Source: Rhodospirillaceae bacterium
Lineage (GTDB): Bacteria; Pseudomonadota; Alphaproteobacteria; Rhodospirillales; UBA2165
Length of the DNA: 64,000 bases
Direction of reading: 5' to 3'
NCBI GenBank assembly: GCA_002723345.1
Contig: PBNV01000031.1
Coordinates: forward strand, 115,953 to 179,952
The notes under the pieces are model-generated. The model had not been told where the DNA came from and searched no databases. It saw only the letters and a program-made list of their open reading frames with translations. Both the position numbers and the translations under genes were made by a program. The first letter of the stretch is position 1, and each line of letters opens with the position of its first letter. Shown piece after piece: positions 32,925 through 40,240 of this stretch.

Positions 32925-34442
32925 ATGCATAATTTAAGCGTCAAAAAAGGCTTTGCTCTAATATTACCTTGCTTGGTTTTCATTACGATGCAGGTTGTTT
33001 TTCAGTCTAGTCAGCTGCATTCAATACTAAATCTGGAGAGTTTAGCCCTCTTTTCTGTATTAGTCTTTGTTGGTGTTTGGGCAGGAGTCTTACTTGAATT
33101 TGAAAATCGCATGGTATCTTCAATTGTTATTGGGGCGCTATTTTCCATATTCCTAAATTTTATCGTATCCATAGAATACTCTGAGATTCGCATGCGCCAC
33201 AGTGTCCCCTTTTACTTTCTTATAGGTTTTTCCATTCATTGGTTTATGGGTGGGAAATTTCTAGTCATAATTTCTTCTGGTTTAATTGCAGTCTTATTAT
33301 CAACTTTATTGCTTCCATCAGAAAAGCCTTGGAAGGAGAACACGTTTAAGTTGGCGAAAACCGTACACCCCTCAAATTACCGCTCACCAATTCTTCACAT
33401 AATTTTAGATGGGCATCTTGGGTTGGCAGCATTTCCTCGTCAAATTGAGGGAGTTGAGCGATTAAACAAAAGAATTGGCGGTATCTATAAACAATATGGC
33501 TTTAAGGTTTATTCCCATGCTTTTAGCCGCCACAATTATACTCAAAACTCTATTCCAGAAATCCTAAATTTGAAGGAAATCAAAATTGATAAGAGTTATA
33601 TTAAAACGGACCCAAAACGCGGATTCGTACTAAAAAAGTCGGCCGTATTCGAGCAATACCGTAAGCACGGCTATGAATTGAACGTATTTCAGACCGATGT
33701 CATGGACTTTTGTTCGTTGGGATATTTTTCTTATTGCCTGACCGCGCCTTATAGAAACCTTGCATGGCTATCAAAGTCGGGCTTCGATTTTTCCACGAAA
33801 TTTTTCGTACTGGCATCAGCATTTCTAAACCAATCAAATTTGTTCCGTTGGTTTGAGAGGTATGTGCTGGCTAGGTGGAATATCGCTGCCCATCCGAAGA
33901 GTTTTCCGCCCGTCAACATGGTAGAGATGTTTAAACGAATTTCGAGGAGCACAGATTTGATTAAACCTGGGACCGTATCACTCGCCCATGTTCTGCTACC
34001 TCACGAGCCCTATGCTTTGGATGAATTATGCAACCTTCGTCCAATAAGTGAATGGTACCCTCAGAATTTAATTAAGGACCAGGAGTCTTACTTCGCTCAG
34101 ATGAATTGCACATACACGCTACTAGAGGAGTTGTTTGAATCGATCCGTAACAATCAAAGCGCAAAAGACGCTATCATAATTGTCCACGGCGATCATGGTT
34201 CCCGTATCGCACACAATGAAAAGTATGCAAAACTGTACACTTACTCCACGTTGTTTGCCGTTCGACACCCAAATTTACCCGCAAATGTTTTTAGCGATGA
34301 AGAGAGTATCACGACATTATTTTCCAAACATGTGTTGGAGTACCTTGGCCTAAACGACGGTAAAAAATTTAGAAACAACTCAATAATGAAAATTAAAGAG
34401 GCTGGCGGGGAGCTGGTCGAGGATGCAGCCCTAAAGTTTTAA
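32925..34442 (+). CDS. Membrane-anchored sulfatase/alkaline-phosphatase-superfamily transferase-hydrolase (LtaS/EptA-like architecture)
   Basis: 505 aa with about 5 N-terminal TM helices and then a soluble domain. That domain has ILHIILDGHLG (metal-ligand Asp region), a candidate nucleophile region HNYTQNSIPE, HVLLPHEPY, and IIVHGDHGSRI (the HGDHG metal motif). Confidence 0.6.
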   Translation: MHNLSVKKGFALILPCLVFITMQVVFQSSQLHSILNLESLALFSVLVFVGVWAGVLLEFENRMVSSIVIGALFSIFLNFIVSIEYSEIRMRHSVPFYFLIGFSIHWFMGGKFLVIISSGLIAVLLSTLLLPSEKPWKENTFKLAKTVHPSNYRSPILHIILDGHLGLAAFPRQIEGVERLNKRIGGIYKQYGFKVYSHAFSRHNYTQNSIPEILNLKEIKIDKSYIKTDPKRGFVLKKSAVFEQYRKHGYELNVFQTDVMDFCSLGYFSYCLTAPYRNLAWLSKSGFDFSTKFFVLASAFLNQSNLFRWFERYVLARWNIAAHPKSFPPVNMVEMFKRISRSTDLIKPGTVSLAHVLLPHEPYALDELCNLRPISEWYPQNLIKDQESYFAQMNCTYTLLEELFESIRNNQSAKDAIIIVHGDHGSRIAHNEKYAKLYTYSTLFAVRHPNLPANVFSDEESITTLFSKHVLEYLGLNDGKKFRNNSIMKIKEAGGELVEDAALKF

Positions 34443-34479: not shown

Positions 34480-36030
34480 TTAAAGTACACGCCTTCGGAT
34501 TTGCGAAGAAACCATGTCAATTATGAAGATGGTAACAAAAATCATAATAATTATTGCAGATACTCGAGGGTAGTTAAACATTCTAAACGATGATTGAAGT
34601 TCGTATCCTATGCCACCAGCTCCGACTATACCAAGCATGGTGGCCATTCTCACGTTTCGGTCAAGGATATACAAATTGTTGCCAACAAAAGATGGAAGCA
34701 CTTGAGGGATTATAGAAAAAGCGAGAACCTGGAGGCGCGAGGCATTCATCGAGGTAAGTGCTTCTGACGGGCCTGGATCTATATGTTCGATGGCCTCGGC
34801 ATAAAATTTAGCAAGAAATCCCATCGTGTGAAGACCGAGAGCTAGAACTCCAGGGATTGCGCCAAAACCCACAGCAATGACCAAGATCATTGCCATTACA
34901 AATTCGGGAACGGCTCTAAAAAACACGGTTATAACCCGACACATCACATAAATACTATAATTTGGAGAAATATTGGAAGCTGATAAGAACCCGAGAGGAA
35001 TTGATAGGGTAATGGCCATTAATGTCCCTAAAAAAGCCATCTCAACTGTTTCTAGCATCAACCCAAGTAATTGATTCATATTGGAAAAATCTGGTGGCAT
35101 CATTCTTTGAATGACATCGGAAAAATAGGTAAAAGTATTATGAAACAGCTCTAATGGGTCGATCTCTAAATCTATAATTGCTAAAATTGTAAATAGAATT
35201 AGACCTGAAATGCTCAAATATGTGGGCCAATTCCATTGCGGTAGGATGTAAGACTCCAAAAGCTTGCGGTTGCCTTCCTCTATGTCGATATATTTGTCTA
35301 ATTTTCCACCATAACCACTTATTTCTGCACTTTCATGAGCGACTAGGACTAATTCTTTGATCGTATTTTTAGTTTTCTCCGGCAATACTGATGAGAAGAC
35401 CAATGGAGCGCCTGGAATAGGCTTAGACTCATGAAGGATACGTATCCTTTGGGCGTACTCTGGGTTACGAGCAATATTCTCTTGCAGATTCACTGAGCTT
35501 ACGGCTGCAACATCAGCACGACCCTCCAATAATATTCGGATAGCCTCATCATGATTATTTGCTTCTATAATTTCAGAAAAATGCAACCTGTTATCTAGAT
35601 TTACCCCGACATCTTTTAGTTCTCTTTTAGGGACGAGGTATCCACTCATAGATTGCGGATTACCTATAACTATTCTCGTCCCCTTAATGTTTTTTAGATC
35701 CTCAACATTTGACTCTTTGAGAGAAATAAAAAGGCTATTGTATGTTGGGGTTGATTGTCCCTTCAGCAACCCGACTGCAAAAGGCTGTATAATCCCTTTT
35801 TCGTTAGCCTCAAGATACGCGTAAGGGCCTAGCCATCCCATTTGCGCTTCCCCGTTTGTCAGTTTAGAGAGCGCCTCTTCATAACTTTCGCAGCGCTGGA
35901 TATGGAAGGAAAAAGATGTTTTCTCTGTCAGAAATTCAAAGAGATTATCAAAATCGAGGCCGGAGGCTTTTCGGCTCGCGGGTGCGATGGCCACTTGAAT
36001 TGTTGTTTCAGGTTCCACCATTTCCATCAA
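34480..36030 (-). CDS. Fusion protein: PhnD-like phosphonate-binding domain plus PhnE-like ABC permease
   Basis: 516 aa. Residues about 1-260 are PhnD-like (GWLGPYAYLEA, SMSGYLVP, ADVAAVSS). The rest is PhnE-like (ETVEMAFLGT, RAVPEFVMAMILV, LDRNVRMATMLGIVGAGGIG). The N-terminus has no signal peptide. The start is TTG 36030 or ATG 36027. Confidence 0.75.
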   Translation of the reverse strand: MMEMVEPETTIQVAIAPASRKASGLDFDNLFEFLTEKTSFSFHIQRCESYEEALSKLTNGEAQMGWLGPYAYLEANEKGIIQPFAVGLLKGQSTPTYNSLFISLKESNVEDLKNIKGTRIVIGNPQSMSGYLVPKRELKDVGVNLDNRLHFSEIIEANNHDEAIRILLEGRADVAAVSSVNLQENIARNPEYAQRIRILHESKPIPGAPLVFSSVLPEKTKNTIKELVLVAHESAEISGYGGKLDKYIDIEEGNRKLLESYILPQWNWPTYLSISGLILFTILAIIDLEIDPLELFHNTFTYFSDVIQRMMPPDFSNMNQLLGLMLETVEMAFLGTLMAITLSIPLGFLSASNISPNYSIYVMCRVITVFFRAVPEFVMAMILVIAVGFGAIPGVLALGLHTMGFLAKFYAEAIEHIDPGPSEALTSMNASRLQVLAFSIIPQVLPSFVGNNLYILDRNVRMATMLGIVGAGGIGYELQSSFRMFNYPRVSAIIIMIFVTIFIIDMVSSQIRRRVL

Positions 36031-36050: not shown

Positions 36051-36848
36051 TTAGGATACAAAAGGAACGTCAATACTTGAGATATATTCGTTATTATGGG
36101 CCCCAAAAAACACGTCCTGTCTCTCACTGCCATAGATATTATGGAGGTATTTTAGGTCTAAAGACGCGCTAGGTGCATCAAAAACTATCTTTCCGTTAGT
36201 CAAACCTATAATTCGATCAGCAAATTTCAGCGCCAAGTCTACTTGATGAAGATTACACAAAACGGTAATCCCCTGTGCCGAGCTAATTCGTTTGAGCATT
36301 GATAGCACCTGAAATGCAATTAAGGGATCAAGACTGGCTACCGGTTCATCTGCCAAAACAATTAGAGGCGAGCGAGCTATAGCCCTGGCAATGCCAACTC
36401 TTTGCTGTTGGCCACCAGAGAGTTGATCCGCTCGAACGTGAGCTTTTGAGAGCAGGCCCACTTGATCAATACATTCGAGTGCTCGCAATTTCTGAGATTT
36501 ATCGAATAAATAAAAAAGCGAACCAACTGGGTGGCACTTATCCAACATCCCTGACAGCACATTATTTATCGTCGACAGATTCTTGACCAAGTTAAAATCT
36601 TGAAAAATCATACTAATGTGTTGCCGAGCTACAAACGGATCATCAAAATTTATGTGGTTTTTATTTAAAATAATTGAGCCGCTGGTCGGTTTATTTAATC
36701 CATTTATACTTCTTAATAATGTTGTTTTTCCGGACCCACTAGGTCACAAAATAACAACAAATTCTCCCTTTTTTACCTCAAAATTCACCTCTTTTAATGC
36801 TTTGGTCCCGTCATTAAATGTATGCTGAAGGTTTTGTACGTTTAGCAT
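36051..36848 (-). pseudogene. phnC: Phosphonate-type ABC ATPase PhnC, interrupted by an in-frame TGA at the first Walker-A Gly codon
   Basis: From the ATG at 36848 the frame reads [53 protein letters not shown]...ISMIFQDFNL...[14 protein letters not shown]...[10 protein letters not shown]. The stop codon at 36744..36746 occupies the G of GPSGSGKT. The track reports only the downstream 186 aa. Confidence 0.8.
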
Positions 36849-36906: not shown

Positions 36907-37755
36907 TTATTTTCTAGCGTCGAGCAAACCCTCCACCTCTCGCAGTAGGTCATAGTCGGAGTCGGTAACAGGGATATAACGTGCCATTTCTCCGCCGTAG
37001 CCCCCAATTTTACCGTGTTTATGAGCCTCCAAAACGGCCGCCCTTATTTTTTTTCTGACTGGCTCCGGGAGCTTAGTCGAGTAGGCTAGTGGGGGAGGTG
37101 GAACGGGGGATGACACATGAATTATGCGGAAATCATCTTTTTTAAACGTTTGATCCTTGAGGCGCGCATCAAAATTTCTAGAACTGACCCCACACACATC
37201 AGCGTGTTTATTTCGGATCGACATCATGCACGCGTCGTGGCTTCCAGCGTAAAAAACGCGTTTAAAGTCCTGGGCTGTTGAAAGACCAAATTTTTGCAGT
37301 TCTACCCGGGGGATTAAATCCCCGCTGGTTGAACCTATACTATTCAGCGCCAGTAATTTGCCTTTTAAGTCGGGCAGTGTTTTGTAGGCGCTGTCCGTAC
37401 GAACAACAAAATAAGTGTTATAAGTCGCATCGGTATCACCTTTACGAACGCCTGCCGCAAAAGCCTCTGCATTTGCTATTTTTGCTGCCATTATGTAGGT
37501 CTTACCACCAAACCAGGCTATTTGCGCCCTGTCTGCCCGCATCGACTCAACGGCCGCATTATAGTCCGTAACTCGAATTGGCGTTATTTCATATCCCGTT
37601 AGCTTGTTTACAATCTCTATTAAATTTACGTAGTCTTTTTCATCGCCCTTCTCGCTGGCTGGAACGAACACCATGTTGATTTTTACTGGTTTTGCTATCA
37701 GGGGAACAGTCCATGCGATCAGCAAAATAACAAAAAGAGGGAGCAATTTATTCAT
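36907..37755 (-). CDS. phnD: PhnD-family periplasmic phosphonate/phosphite-binding protein
   Basis: 282 aa with a signal peptide MNKLLPLFVILLIAWTVPLIA, then MVFVPA, IAWFGGKTYIMA, and STSGDLIPR, typical of the PhnD family. Confidence 0.8.
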   Translation of the reverse strand: MNKLLPLFVILLIAWTVPLIAKPVKINMVFVPASEKGDEKDYVNLIEIVNKLTGYEITPIRVTDYNAAVESMRADRAQIAWFGGKTYIMAAKIANAEAFAAGVRKGDTDATYNTYFVVRTDSAYKTLPDLKGKLLALNSIGSTSGDLIPRVELQKFGLSTAQDFKRVFYAGSHDACMMSIRNKHADVCGVSSRNFDARLKDQTFKKDDFRIIHVSSPVPPPPLAYSTKLPEPVRKKIRAAVLEAHKHGKIGGYGGEMARYIPVTDSDYDLLREVEGLLDARK

Positions 37756-37781: not shown

Positions 37782-38903
37782 TCAGCTAGCAAACTCGACG
37801 AGTGCTTTTTTATAGTCTTCAACCGTATCTATCTCTCTCCAGCCACGTTCAATGATAACGCTGTGAACGGATACTCCGAGATCCACCATTTCTTGGATTA
37901 AGTCAGTGAGGTAGGCTTTTTGGAATGTTTTGGCCCGTTGGAAGGGCTTGTCCCAATAAAGTGCTTTTGACCTCTGAAAATGACGCTTAAAAATTTCCGC
38001 CCCTCGTGGCGTCAATTTAATCATACCAATAAATTCACCATGAACATCATCCTTGTTGGTCATAATTTTACCGATTTTTATGACCTCATTATTGGCGTCC
38101 AATACCACATTTTCCGCCTCATCAATTGGATGTTCTTTCCTGCCGACATACATTCCGCGCCAATCGATATCTACTACAATCGAAATGTCGTGCTTGGACT
38201 CAAGTAATCTACGAACAATAAAGCTCTCGAATAGTATGTCAGAGTAAGATATAACAACATTATTGTTTATTTCCTTTTCTGCATAAAATAGTGAATTTAA
38301 GATATTGTTATTCTCATATTCATCATTATCAAAATATTTGATATCTGGATAATCTATACACTCTTTTTTGTACCCTCTAATCAGCGAAATATCAGATATG
38401 CCTGTTTCTTGGTATGCCTCAAGCTGGCGTTGCAGCAGGGTCTTGTCTCCAAATTCTAAAAGACATTTTGGACGCACATCGGTATATGACCCCATCCTGC
38501 TACCGAGACCGGCTGCAATAATGATCGCTTTTGTATTCTTGGCCATAAGCAACTCCCGCATTTCTCTGATCTGTAACTCGCTGGCGCGTTGGTCTTGGAT
38601 CTCCCTCAATAGGTGCACTGTTTCGGGACTTTTCTGGATCATCTCTGATACATCTGCCGCGATATCATTTCTAGACTGCCCTGCTAAATCGAAAGCTAAT
38701 TTTTTATCCGCATTCAACAGATTGGCGATCTCCATCACGGTTGCCGCTTTTGGGGCGTCACGTTTCTGTTTCTCGATGTCGTTAAGGTACGAAGGGGAAA
38801 TGCCTAATTGACGCGCAAATTCCCTGAGCCCTAGACCCGCATCTAATCTAAGATCTCGAATGTACTGTCCAAAAGTATCGCTTGGGTCACCCATGAGAGC
38901 CAC
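37782..38903 (-). CDS. XRE-type HTH domain fused to a LicC/PntC-like nucleotidyl(cytidylyl)transferase
   Basis: 373 aa. The N-terminus FGQYIRDLRLDAGLGLREFARQLGISPSYLNDIEKQKR is a Cro/C1 HTH. From about residue 122 it reads KAIIIAAGLGSRMG...RPKCLL...ISYSDILF...WREIDTVEDYKKA, a GT-A NTP-transferase fold of the phosphocholine or 2-AEP cytidylyltransferase type. Confidence 0.75.
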   Translation of the reverse strand: MALMGDPSDTFGQYIRDLRLDAGLGLREFARQLGISPSYLNDIEKQKRDAPKAATVMEIANLLNADKKLAFDLAGQSRNDIAADVSEMIQKSPETVHLLREIQDQRASELQIREMRELLMAKNTKAIIIAAGLGSRMGSYTDVRPKCLLEFGDKTLLQRQLEAYQETGISDISLIRGYKKECIDYPDIKYFDNDEYENNNILNSLFYAEKEINNNVVISYSDILFESFIVRRLLESKHDISIVVDIDWRGMYVGRKEHPIDEAENVVLDANNEVIKIGKIMTNKDDVHGEFIGMIKLTPRGAEIFKRHFQRSKALYWDKPFQRAKTFQKAYLTDLIQEMVDLGVSVHSVIIERGWREIDTVEDYKKALVEFAS

Positions 38904-38955
38904 ATTTGTTCAACTGTTCGCAAACAGGTAAACAATCTAGGTCCGATGGTCAATA

Positions 38956-40110
38956 TTATTTTTTTACTATGTCATAAATCAACTCGGAGCCCCTTTTGGC
39001 ACTTTGGCCGATATTAAATACAGTTTTGTCCCGCAAAGCTCGAATTTGTGTGACAAATTTCTCTGAGTCTTCCATAATTTCTGTCACGACATCTGTCACG
39101 TTGTCTAACTTCTCTTTCCCAAGAATTATGCCAATCTTATCACGCGCACTAATTTCAATGGGAATATTTTCTAACTCCGTGTAACGTGGATTATTTATTT
39201 TTTTGGGAACGTCAATGAATATGACGGGCCGCTCTAAGCCGAAGGCAAACTCTAAACTGACGCCCGACCAGTCACTTATTAATACATCGGCTTTGATCAA
39301 ACTCTCAAAAATAGCGTTATCCATATCCATTTCAAAATTTGGATGACTATTAAAGTTCGCAGCTAAGAGTTTCACATTTTTGGCAGATTTGATCCTGCTT
39401 TGCGGGTGAAGCCGCAACGTCACATAATGTCCCGCATCCAGTAGCGACCCAACTAATTCTTTTGCACCATTTTCAATCAAGCCCTCTGACCCCCATGATG
39501 GGGCAACTAATACGTTATAATTCGAGGTTGCTGGTTTTGAAATAAGGGGCTGCGAAGATACCATATCCAGAATGGTGTCTAATGGTGCGTATCCATGTTC
39601 ATACAAATTTTTTTCTGGGAGATTATTCAATTTCTCCCATTCGCGAATTTCCGATACATGGTGGGATCCGGAGCACAAAATTGTGTCAAAGTGATCAAAA
39701 GCCCCTGGCTTGTAAACCATGTGAGAACTCACAAGAGAGTGTTGCAAATAGATATAGTGGACCGGGTAACGCGATCGTTTAATATGAAAGGAGTGAAGGT
39801 CAGGCATTGTCATCACTAAGACCTTGGCCTTTAAGGTTTGAAAGGCAAATATCATTGCGCTTCCCCAACCTACATATACTGATTTTACATTCTCTGGTGG
39901 TTCCGAGAGCAACGGGTCATCTTGATCAGAGGTTAAATAACAAATTCTTAAATTATGATCCTCTGTTAAATGGGACATTACTGGCAAAAGAAAACCGTGG
40001 TATGCCCCCCCCTCCGAGTAAAATACCAAGTTTTTATCTTCCAAAGGTAGCGACCGCAGTTCAATGCACCCACGCCAAGATGCAATAAACGATTGGAAAT
40101 ATTTAAGCAC
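38956..40110 (-). CDS. TagF-like CDP-alcohol (glycero/ribitol)phosphotransferase family protein
   Basis: YNVLVAPSWGSEG matches the family APTWR-type motif. ADVLISDWSGVSLEFAFGLERPVIFIDVP matches the LITDYSS...F motif. The start is uncertain: the track start at 40203 overlaps the tRNA, so I suggest the GTG at 40110 (MLKYFQSF...). Confidence 0.7.
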   Translation of the reverse strand: MLKYFQSFIASWRGCIELRSLPLEDKNLVFYSEGGAYHGFLLPVMSHLTEDHNLRICYLTSDQDDPLLSEPPENVKSVYVGWGSAMIFAFQTLKAKVLVMTMPDLHSFHIKRSRYPVHYIYLQHSLVSSHMVYKPGAFDHFDTILCSGSHHVSEIREWEKLNNLPEKNLYEHGYAPLDTILDMVSSQPLISKPATSNYNVLVAPSWGSEGLIENGAKELVGSLLDAGHYVTLRLHPQSRIKSAKNVKLLAANFNSHPNFEMDMDNAIFESLIKADVLISDWSGVSLEFAFGLERPVIFIDVPKKINNPRYTELENIPIEISARDKIGIILGKEKLDNVTDVVTEIMEDSEKFVTQIRALRDKTVFNIGQSAKRGSELIYDIVKK

Positions 40111-40164
40111 TTTCAAACCAGGCAAAACAATACAGTTTTGTTTAGAGACTTCGGCCCATAAGAA

Positions 40165-40240
40165 TGGTGCCGCCTGGGTGACTTGAACACCCGACCCTCG
40201 CATTACGAATGCGATGCTCTACCAACTGAGCTAAGGCGGC
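40165..40240 (-). tRNA. tRNA-Thr (anticodon CGU), with encoded CCA
   Basis: The minus strand reads GCCGCCTTAGCTCAGTTGGTAGAGCATCGCATTCGTAATGCGAGGGTCGGGTGTTCAAGTCACCCAGGCGGCACCA. It folds into a perfect cloverleaf: 7-bp acceptor, GCTC/GAGC D stem, TCGCA/TGCGA anticodon stem with loop TTCGTAA, and GGGTG/CACCC T stem with a TTCAAGT loop. Confidence 0.95.

Follow-up and report, generated by a model that had tools for sequence, protein, structure and literature searches.

A candidate trigger enzyme joining an XRE-type repressor to a LicC/PntC-like cytidylyltransferase beside phosphonate supply genes

The stretch of DNA considered here, 64,000 nucleotides of contig PBNV01000031.1 from a Rhodospirillaceae bacterium (the window in what follows), carries on its minus strand a gene (37782..38903) whose 373-residue product joins an XRE/Cro-C1 helix-turn-helix (HTH) to a LicC/PntC-like nucleotidyltransferase. 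We propose that this fusion is a 'trigger enzyme', in which a site-specific repressor and a LicC/PntC-type cytidylyltransferase together match the supply of a phosphonate to its use, and on balance we hold this proposal to be probable. As in other trigger enzymes, a DNA-binding and a catalytically equipped domain lie in one chain, and candidate operators precede the fusion gene, phnD or mpnS. A narrower version is put forward more tentatively, as a possibility: that a single SAR11/marine protein both makes CMP-methylphosphonate and switches methylphosphonate supply, through methylphosphonate synthase (MPnS) or a PhnD-type importer, via its own operator. We infer from sequence in which direction regulation runs, what the substrate is, that the enzyme is active and that ligands control it. 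The first-pass annotation of this DNA had suggested either that the enzyme domain acts as the ligand sensor for operon control or that the protein is bifunctional; the evidence collected here points that way, without telling the two options apart.

The gene runs from a GTG at 38903 to a stop codon at 37782-37784, which confirms the open reading frame (ORF) of 373 residues called at first and adds its strand, a detail left unstated then. An alternative ATG start lies at 38894 (codon 4), and it is from this codon that P0001, a metagenomic database protein of 370 residues that is 99% identical to the fusion, has been annotated. A search of 5.8 billion proteins returned 2834 matches, the best 120 of which are almost all 366-400 residues long and 62-99% identical to the query, with both domains present in nearly all of these 120. 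A stop or frameshift between the two parts in orthologues had been named as a sign of two genes merged by error, and none was seen between HTH and enzyme in the homologues, almost all of the best 120 of the 2834 being around 370 residues long. The fused gene was also recovered in a one-genome-per-species scan from many Pelagibacteraceae (SAR11) single-cell genomes and from Rhodospirillales, as well as from Omnitrophota, KSB1, Aminicenantes, Planctomycetia, Thermodesulfobacteriota and Actinomycetota. Judged from these homologues, the fusion is real and conserved, and a merge error is excluded. Clustered at 50% identity, the matches of full length fall into a few groups (P0112, P0123 and P0127), and the next relatives, at 35-50% identity, are either stand-alone enzymes of around 255 residues that begin at query residue ~124 or other fusions. 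In the latter the enzyme domain is partnered with iron alcohol dehydrogenase, phosphoenolpyruvate (PEP) mutase, sulfatase/phosphodiesterase-fold domains, cupin plus HTH, an APS-kinase-like domain, a GT2 glycosyltransferase or a methyltransferase. An AlphaFold2 model of the whole protein, built on 60 homologues, has a mean predicted local distance difference test score (pLDDT) of 90.2 and a predicted TM-score (pTM) of 0.81, and lays the chain out as five HTH helices (11-77), three further helices (83-122) and then a GT-A fold.

The HTH itself (residues 11-77; 38673..38873, minus strand) is recognised by Pfam, by the structural model and by profile matches in the PDB. HTH_31 scores 42.3 bits against a gathering cut-off of 27 (E 9.7e-11), HTH_3 36.3 bits against 23 (E 5.8e-9) and HTH_19 35.5 bits against 30.2, HTH_31 and HTH_3 covering residues 11-67 and the three models together residues 11-74, and the recognition helix reads SPSYLNDIEKQKR. 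The five helices (11-21, 26-33, 37-44, 53-62 and 67-77) are modelled with block-mean pLDDT values of 92-97, so the concern that the region might lack a proper HTH core on modelling finds no support. The residues that follow (~78-122) had been described as a charged linker, a description that does not survive: they are instead conserved and helical, and in alignments they extend the HTH match to the full length of small repressors. This connector (residues 83-122; 38538..38657, minus strand) forms three helices (83-91, 93-104 and 109-122; block-mean pLDDT 87-94 over residues 81-120). Among 60 sequences D72, L73, A74, S77, D84 and R100 are invariant, and connector residues L98 and L99 are conserved. 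In a profile search of the PDB, residues 7-126 align to residues 6-125 of 8bny, an 'immunity repressor', and the N-terminal profile matches SinR, ClgR and the immunity repressor but not HppE or MPnS. The N-terminal ~120 residues are thus, by sequence comparison, a complete XRE/SinR-like repressor module rather than an HTH alone. Because the HTH and connector together resemble a whole small repressor, the connector may be an oligomerisation module. When residues 1-122 alone were searched against the same 5.8-billion-protein set, only four short or partial proteins were returned, a result that does not bear on the origin of the repressor module.

A candidate operator is present near the gene. 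Within the 52-nt gap upstream of the fusion gene lies a 30-bp imperfect palindrome, TTGTTTACCTGTTTGCGAACAGTTGAACAA (38906..38935, minus strand), whose end is separated from the GTG by 2 nt and from the ATG by 11 nt. Its core, TGTTTGCGAACA, at 38915-38926, is the sole exact core match in the 64-kb window. The same motif is found upstream in relatives across phyla, with the palindrome core GTTWGCGAACA and an approximate consensus of GTGTTAAC-yTGTTwGCGAACAr-GTTAACAC. A search for palindromes before both this gene and the TagF-like gene that precedes it had been proposed at the outset; it has yielded the conserved site directly upstream of the fusion gene and no second site for the TagF-like gene within the window. 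With a position weight matrix derived from 12 sites, 2.28 million positions were scanned, and matches above 20 bits were confined to 8-90 nt before the fusion start or to ~1.13-1.18 kb past it, the latter position being the gap between the fusion stop codon and the next gene; the window operator itself scores 38.3 bits. In SAR11 the operator takes the form ATTAACTTGTAAGCGAACAAAGTTAATGATAA and usually lies 17-40 nt before the start of phnD, or before mpnS in one single-cell genome (L020).

The motif also keeps company with the HTH. Counting distinct proteins and two search spans (upstream and before the next gene), the 11-mer core was found with at most two mismatches at 57/63 HTH-bearing genes (47/51 of those with both flanks) compared with 3/18 HTH-less homologues, two of these three being cut by a contig end on the 5' side, against a background of 0.12 per 430-nt span searched. 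It is absent from L073, where a stand-alone enzyme precedes phnDCE, and from L071, where an Arm-type domain replaces the XRE domain. The association holds in reverse: in a gene-blind search of a metagenome collection with an 18-mer of the motif, 80/120 stretches had the end of a fusion gene upstream and the start of phnD downstream, and 19 more had one of these two genes adjacent, giving 99/120 in total. Where neither gene was adjacent the matches lay in or beside unrelated ORFs and had no right-hand arm, with the exception of L093, a full SAR11-type palindrome at a contig edge. A wider regulon elsewhere was considered and set aside, as these off-gene metagenome matches, L093 apart, look like chance. 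Variants of the recognition helix track variants of the operator, SAAYLNDIE occurring with TGTTCGCTGTnAGCGAACA and APSYLNEIE.GER with TGTTCGC-N6-7-GCGAACA. From these patterns we conclude that the HTH should be a working, sequence-specific DNA-binding domain, controlling its own operon or the adjacent supply genes.

The position of the palindrome relative to promoters is informative in two relatives. In L078 a TTGACA-16-TAGAAT promoter is followed directly by the palindrome, and in L076 a TTGACT-18-GATAAT promoter overlaps it; a palindrome at or right after the -10 element, wherever a near-consensus promoter is visible, is the geometry predicted for a repressor. In the window, a weak sigma-70-like match (TTGATT-16-AATAAT; 38955..38982, minus strand) lies just upstream of the operator and serves as a pointer only. 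Other explanations for the conserved intergenic motif fared poorly. It was rejected as a terminator hairpin of the upstream gene, the stem being AT-rich with no T-run after it; the terminator reading also fails because the motif lies upstream of the fusion in many phyla and its GCGAACA centre is conserved in sequence rather than covarying. An Rfam scan of 30-43 kb found only a tRNA, so no riboswitch explains the motif.

The enzyme half (residues 124-373; 37785..38534, minus strand) is a GT-A-type nucleotidyltransferase by Pfam, by Foldseek and by comparison with its stand-alone homologues. From residue 125 it matches NTP_transf_3 (46.6 bits against a cut-off of 27, E 5.6e-12) and NTP_transferase (E 4.5e-5, above the gathering score). 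The best fold matches are PntC (6pd2, E 6.9e-18, ~21% identity) and LicC (1jyk, TM-score 0.84 when normalised to the target). LicC is also the closest PDB sequence match (E 1.9e-16, or 2e-20 by profile), followed by glucose-1-phosphate cytidylyltransferase and then by 6pd1, the fusion of PntC to a 2-aminoethylphosphonate (AEP) transaminase. The domain assignment first made for this ORF, an XRE-type HTH with a LicC/PntC-like GT-A enzyme, accordingly stands. No full-length NCBIfam model reaches its cut-off for the fusion, the best being Arch_glmU at 56.4 bits against 292. Residues 132-146, GLGSRMGSYTDVRPK (38466..38510, minus strand), fit the signature GXG(T/S)RX4-8PK as defined in PMC6697681; in PntC the corresponding Arg15 and Lys25 are required for activity (PMC6697681). 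In the fusion the signature takes the form G132-L-G134-S-R136-x8-P145-K146; G132, G134, R136, P145 and K146 are invariant among 60 members that are 61-76% identical to the query, as are around 80 further positions. This intact signature argues for retained catalysis.

No acidic amine-contacting residue of the PntC/LicC type occupies the relevant position, where the fusion has an invariant tyrosine: Tyr220 aligns with Glu104 of PntC, which touches the amine of AEP, and the LicC equivalent is the smaller Asp105. Because this acidic position is an invariant tyrosine, we do not class the enzyme as specific for AEP or phosphocholine. The substrate is probably a small amine-free phosphonate, with methylphosphonate as first choice and 2-hydroxyethylphosphonate as second, a suggestion that draws on Tyr220, on the MPnS and iron alcohol dehydrogenase partners, on the PtxB/PhnD-like character of the adjacent PhnD and on the fusion of related enzyme domains to PEP mutase or iron alcohol dehydrogenase. 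In two of the enzyme's relatives, P0150 (702 residues) and P0174 (708 residues), the enzyme is fused to cupin regions, with HTH_31 also present in P0150. These cupin regions look HEPD/MPnS/HppE-like and, if that is what they are, the two proteins would be single-chain cytidylyltransferase-dioxygenases.

Gene context links the fusion to phosphonate supply. We clustered the ORFs of 90 loci, among which 62 HTH-bearing genes were recognised at that stage. PhnD, PhnC and PhnD::PhnE lie directly after the fusion gene in ~43/62 of these loci, and the TagF-like cluster is present in 20/62 neighbourhoods. In a second type (L005-7, L018 and L020) the fusion gene precedes genes for a protein of ~435-463 residues and an iron alcohol dehydrogenase. 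These proteins match methylphosphonate synthase (6b9s) with E values of 1e-75 to 1.7e-108 and HEPD more weakly; for the homologue in L020 the values are 1.7e-108 and 2.5e-63, respectively. By alignment the SAR11 copy retains His148, Gln152, His190, Phe162 and Ile184 of the archaeal enzyme, and Born et al. are said to have found in 2017 that Phe162 and Ile184 distinguish MPnS from HEPD. L020, a SAR11 single-cell genome, carries in order a CTP_transf_like::PEP mutase (Fom1-like), a thiamine pyrophosphate-dependent decarboxylase, an iron alcohol dehydrogenase, the fusion gene, the operator and mpnS. With the Fom1-like PEP mutase fusion and decarboxylase upstream and mpnS downstream, the fusion gene here occupies the middle of a complete methylphosphonate cluster. 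A third type (L055-57, L059 and L064) continues with at least one of a methyltransferase, a major facilitator superfamily (MFS) transporter, a phosphate-selective porin (Porin_O_P) and a CDP-alcohol phosphatidyltransferase (CDP-OH_P_transf), all four occurring together only in L055. Taking nearly every well-flanked locus, a supplier of phosphonate or phosphate adjoins the fusion gene, and a potential user of the activated head group is often near. The PEP mutase motif is present in L020, L042, L069, L070, L076, L083, L084 and L087.

In the window itself the minus-strand order is TagF-like gene, fusion gene, phnD, phnC and phnD::phnE. The first gene downstream of the fusion (36907..37755, minus strand) encodes a PhnD-type periplasmic phosphonate/phosphite binding protein, assigned by Pfam Phosphonate-bd (1.3e-54) and the NCBIfam subfamily TIGR01098, whose closest solved relatives are the phosphite-binding PtxB, 5jvb (deposited as a phosphonate-binding protein) and E. 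coli PhnD. The upstream TagF-like gene (38956..40125, minus strand) belongs to the glycerophosphotransferase family (Glyphos_transf, 27.8 bits against 22.1), and its product is a candidate user of a nucleotide-activated head group. The PEP mutase motif EDKXXXXXNS occurs nowhere in the 64-kb window, and on that ground a biosynthetic cluster was ruled out here.

Taken together, these data suggest a model for how the fusion may work. The protein would bind the palindrome, probably as a dimer or higher oligomer, and where a good -35/-10 pair is apparent the palindrome lies over the -10 or immediately past it, a position from which bound protein would occlude the promoter. The result would be repression of the operon that imports or makes the enzyme's own substrate. 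The enzyme domain would convert CTP and a small amine-free phosphonate into a CMP-phosphonate, from which a neighbouring transferase could then move the head group onto a glycan or lipid, the candidates being the TagF-like enzyme, the CDP-alcohol phosphatidyltransferase and the sulfatase-fold enzyme. Affinity for DNA may depend on which ligand occupies the enzyme domain, be it substrate, CTP or accumulated product, and supply, by import or synthesis, would in this way be matched to consumption, much as biotinoyl-AMP does for BirA. As no PEP mutase is found nearby, the window locus would represent an 'import and activate' version of the system.

Several observations sit uneasily with the trigger-enzyme proposal and need careful consideration. 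Six HTH-bearing genes lack the core at two or fewer mismatches, although three of these six have diverged matrix matches, and in the window the promoter- and terminator-like matches are not above shuffled expectation. P0127, an HTH-bearing protein of a distant branch (388 residues, 37% identity), has neither the arginine of GXGSR nor the lysine of PK (AAGSNALGESIKSSQPVWQ); with the overall fold kept, it may be a pure sensor derivative, and this loss of the catalytic Arg and Lys indicates that the scaffold can persist without catalysis. In several biosynthetic clusters (L020, L042, L069, L070, L076, L083 and L084) a second cytidylyltransferase is already present, fused to PEP mutase, and the domain fused to the HTH could consequently be mainly a sensor. 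A SAR11 contig (L042, 50-7185) joins synthesis genes and importer in one cluster, in the order Fom1-like CTP_transf_like::PEP mutase, decarboxylase, iron alcohol dehydrogenase, fusion gene and phnD-phnC-phnE, with the importer standing where L020 has mpnS. With ppm, ppd and the alcohol dehydrogenase accompanying an importer, the picture of import instead of synthesis is blurred. In the window, the gene for the PhnC ATP-binding cassette (ABC) ATPase (36051..36848, minus strand) has an in-frame TGA at 36744-36746, which replaces the glycine codon of the Walker A motif (GEFVVIL*PSGSGKT, the asterisk marking the stop). A stop at this position is absent from all 60 other loci with a PhnC match, and recoding was ruled out on this basis; the TGA marks a recent pseudogene, and with it a dead importer in this genome, or else a sequencing error. 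More generally, DNA binding, catalysis, substrate and ligand control are all properties that we infer from the same kind of data.

It is against this background that a purely regulatory role should be judged, in which the nucleotidyltransferase-like domain senses phosphonate, CTP or both, its own turnover does not matter and other enzymes carry out the activation for surface tailoring. We consider this somewhat unlikely, but the second cytidylyltransferases and P0127, which keeps its HTH after losing the catalytic residues, fit it, and the operator evidence speaks to the regulatory half alone. Against it, the invariance of the signature and of the ~80 further positions is more than ligand binding usually needs. 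The fusion is also the sole LicC/PntC-type enzyme beside the TagF-like transferase in the window and in most PhnDCE-type loci, and L073 has an HTH-less enzyme in the same place before phnDCE, which implies that an enzyme is wanted there. A different way to separate the two functions would be for one ORF to give two products, a full-length repressor and a free enzyme made by internal initiation. The first-pass annotation had raised this for a methionine near the start of the enzyme domain, and in the window lineage it is feasible: Met120 lies within LLMAKNTK (residues 118-125), just ahead of KAIIIAAGLGSRMG (residues 124-137), and its in-frame ATG at codon 120 has GGGAG 5' of it at a suitable distance. 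Several non-SAR11 members likewise have a methionine where stand-alone homologues start (MKAII...). As a property of the family the idea does not hold, since an in-frame ATG within 10 codons of the enzyme-domain boundary is found in only 23/62 members, 14 of these 23 with a Shine-Dalgarno-like tetramer upstream, whereas 39/62, most SAR11 copies among them, have none. Moreover, conserved Arg-Glu codons force a Shine-Dalgarno-like string, and Met120 sits in a connector helix that is modelled confidently as part of the fold, and so we regard two products as improbable.

We attach similarly little weight to the possibility that the fusion is a LicC-type phosphocholine or AEP cytidylyltransferase serving lic1/Pnt-like decoration, with an HTH that is merely autoregulatory. 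LicC is indeed the best PDB sequence match, JGI labels some members 'choline kinase/...', and the methyltransferase and CDP-alcohol phosphatidyltransferase of L055-type loci recall CDP-choline lipid synthesis. Yet the acid expected to contact the amine is replaced by an invariant tyrosine, no full-length NCBIfam model comes near its cut-off, and the partners are MPnS, iron alcohol dehydrogenase and a PtxB/PhnD-type protein rather than a choline transporter or kinase or an AEP transaminase. Least credible of all is that the fusion is an artefact of two merged genes, or that its HTH is purely structural like the alpha-domain of HppE, HEPD and MPnS. Those three enzymes do have HTH-like alpha-domains, and some relatives of the enzyme half are fused to cupin-plus-HTH proteins. 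However, one continuous ORF recurs across thousands of independent assemblies and many phyla, the N-terminal profile finds SinR, ClgR and the immunity repressor rather than HppE or MPnS, and the palindrome co-occurs with the HTH. Both ideas are effectively refuted by the recurrence of the fusion and by this co-occurrence.

Comparison with known systems places the fusion more clearly. PntC (Tde1415 of Treponema denticola; PDB 6PD1/6PD2) is a phosphonate-specific cytidylyltransferase (Rice et al. 2019, PMC6697681). It is the best fold match and shares the signature with its catalytic Arg and Lys; many PntC genes, like the relatives of the fusion that sit by ppm, ppd, iron alcohol dehydrogenase and MPnS, lie in phosphonate clusters. 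The two differ in that identity is only ~21%, Glu104 of PntC stands opposite Tyr220, and PntC is fused to PEP mutase or AEP transaminase whereas the usual neighbour of the fusion is an importer and not ppm. The inventory of Ppm fusions compiled by Rice et al. lists no HTH partner (PMC6697681). LicC, the CTP:phosphocholine cytidylyltransferase of Streptococcus pneumoniae (1JYK/1JYL), resembles the enzyme half in sequence and over its whole chain, but has no DNA-binding domain and keeps the acidic residue (Asp105) that the fusion has replaced. In lic1 systems, import of the head-group precursor is coupled to its activation with CTP and its transfer onto surface glycans, and the window gene set suggests the same logic of uptake, activation and decoration. 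The window transporter is, however, a PhnD-type ABC system and not a LicB-type choline permease, and a phosphonate needs no kinase. The Fom1 cytidylyltransferase domain, fused to PEP mutase in the fosfomycin pathway, cytidylylates 2-hydroxyethylphosphonate (PMC6697681), which is one of our two candidate substrates, and Fom1-like CTP_transf_like::PEP mutase genes neighbour the fusion in SAR11 (L020 and L042); Fom1 is nevertheless of another fold (PF01467) and lacks a DNA-binding domain.

Among trigger enzymes, NadR is the nearest in kind, combining a DNA-binding domain with a nucleotidyltransferase. Its HTH belongs to the Cro/C1 class, and uptake through PnuC is likewise under its control. NadR consists of an HTH, a nicotinamide mononucleotide (NMN) adenylyltransferase and a ribosylnicotinamide kinase, and controls genes of its own pathway (PMC5397151). 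Any sequence relationship to the fusion is limited to the HTH class, as the transferase of NadR is of the HIGH-motif (CTP_transf_like) type rather than the GT-A fold, and metabolite, operator and taxa all differ. BirA and the archaeal RbkR are enzyme-repressor fusions that govern biosynthesis or transporter genes for their own substrate, which is the model proposed here for the fusion, and the corepressor of BirA is the nucleotidylated intermediate biotinoyl-AMP. These two differ from the fusion in their winged-helix DNA-binding domains, unrelated catalytic folds and place in vitamin metabolism, and ligand control is for the fusion a prediction only. BirA, NadR, RbkR and PutA are, in function, the closest precedents (PMC5397151).

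What is new here is the combination of HTH and enzyme, its operator, the tie with import of phosphonates and synthesis of methylphosphonate, and its occurrence in SAR11; neither domain is unusual by itself, and trigger-enzyme logic is already established. The architecture had been flagged as not one already described, which holds for the literature searched, yet sequence databases contain the protein in abundance, named generically, for instance as 'NTP transferase domain-containing protein'. A GT-A nucleotidyltransferase would join the short list of trigger enzymes (BirA, NadR, RbkR and PutA), and one testable protein family now ties a PntC/LicC-type activating enzyme and a 30-bp operator to phosphonate supply genes, be they for an importer or for MPnS. 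The streamlined genomes of SAR11 carry few transcription factors, and a conserved regulator whose operator can be read offers a practical entry point in these organisms; the operator may also be a simple predictor of pathway genes in uncultured genomes. In the literature searched we found no description of how producers regulate phosphonate synthesis, nor of the purpose of the widespread PhnD-type importers that lie outside C-P (carbon-phosphorus) lyase clusters. Phosphonates reportedly account for 20-25% of phosphorus in the high-molecular-weight fraction of marine dissolved organic matter (10.1101/2020.11.04.368217), and methylphosphonate breakdown is reported to add to the methane supersaturation of oxygenated surface waters (PMC12916788). 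If the narrower, methylphosphonate version of our proposal is true, free methylphosphonate (or 2-hydroxyethylphosphonate) from seawater would be salvaged for surface glycans or lipids and not just as a source of phosphorus, and the marine methylphosphonate cycle, from which aerobic methane production is fed, would have a dedicated transcriptional control point.

Two further arrangements among the relatives deserve mention. In a gammaproteobacterial single-cell genome (L071, 7653-8783; P0121) the enzyme precedes phnD-phnC-phnDE, and an Arm-type DNA-binding domain, of the kind found at the N-terminus of integrases, replaces the XRE domain; this reflects a domain swap or else the remains of an integrase left in frame. 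B12-binding radical S-adenosylmethionine (SAM) enzymes recur near the fusion, two genes upstream in L002-L004 and L013 and also in L005-L007, L064, L070 and L073. Fom3 methylates cytidylylated 2-hydroxyethylphosphonate, and these neighbours recall it and could hint at a 2-hydroxypropylphosphonate branch.

The remaining features of the window concern the importer and its setting. The last gene of the transporter set (34480..36030, minus strand) encodes a 516-residue fusion of a PhnD-like domain to a PhnE permease, identified by Pfam (Phosphonate-bd at residues 26-235 and BPD_transp_1 at 344-515) and by NCBIfam (PhnE, 287.9 bits against 216.7), and it keeps the same position in relatives. No signal peptide or anchor is visible before its N-terminal PhnD-like domain (residues ~10-236), here or in L001, L002 and most related loci, and this second binding domain may be cytoplasmic, which would be unusual for an ABC importer. 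The arrangement holds across the whole family. The called start of the TagF-like gene, at 40203, overlaps a gene for tRNA-Thr(CGT) (40165..40240, minus strand), and for this reason the true start is probably near 40125. The tRNA gene stands at the edge of a low-GC stretch of ~7.3 kb (~32.9-40.2 kb; 0.40-0.46 compared with 0.52-0.57 in the flanks), with the step at ~40.2 kb, from 0.40-0.42 to 0.52-0.57, falling exactly at tRNA-Thr. The six-gene module looks like a genomic island beside a tRNA, and no convincing direct repeats that might be attachment sites were found flanking it. Within the island a gene on the plus strand (32925-34442), facing the transporter genes, encodes a multi-pass membrane protein of 505 residues with a weak sulfatase-fold domain and an LtaS/EptA-like architecture, which might act outside the cell to transfer the head group or trim it. 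In related Rhodospirillaceae loci (L002-L004) an integrase-like gene lies directly after the module.

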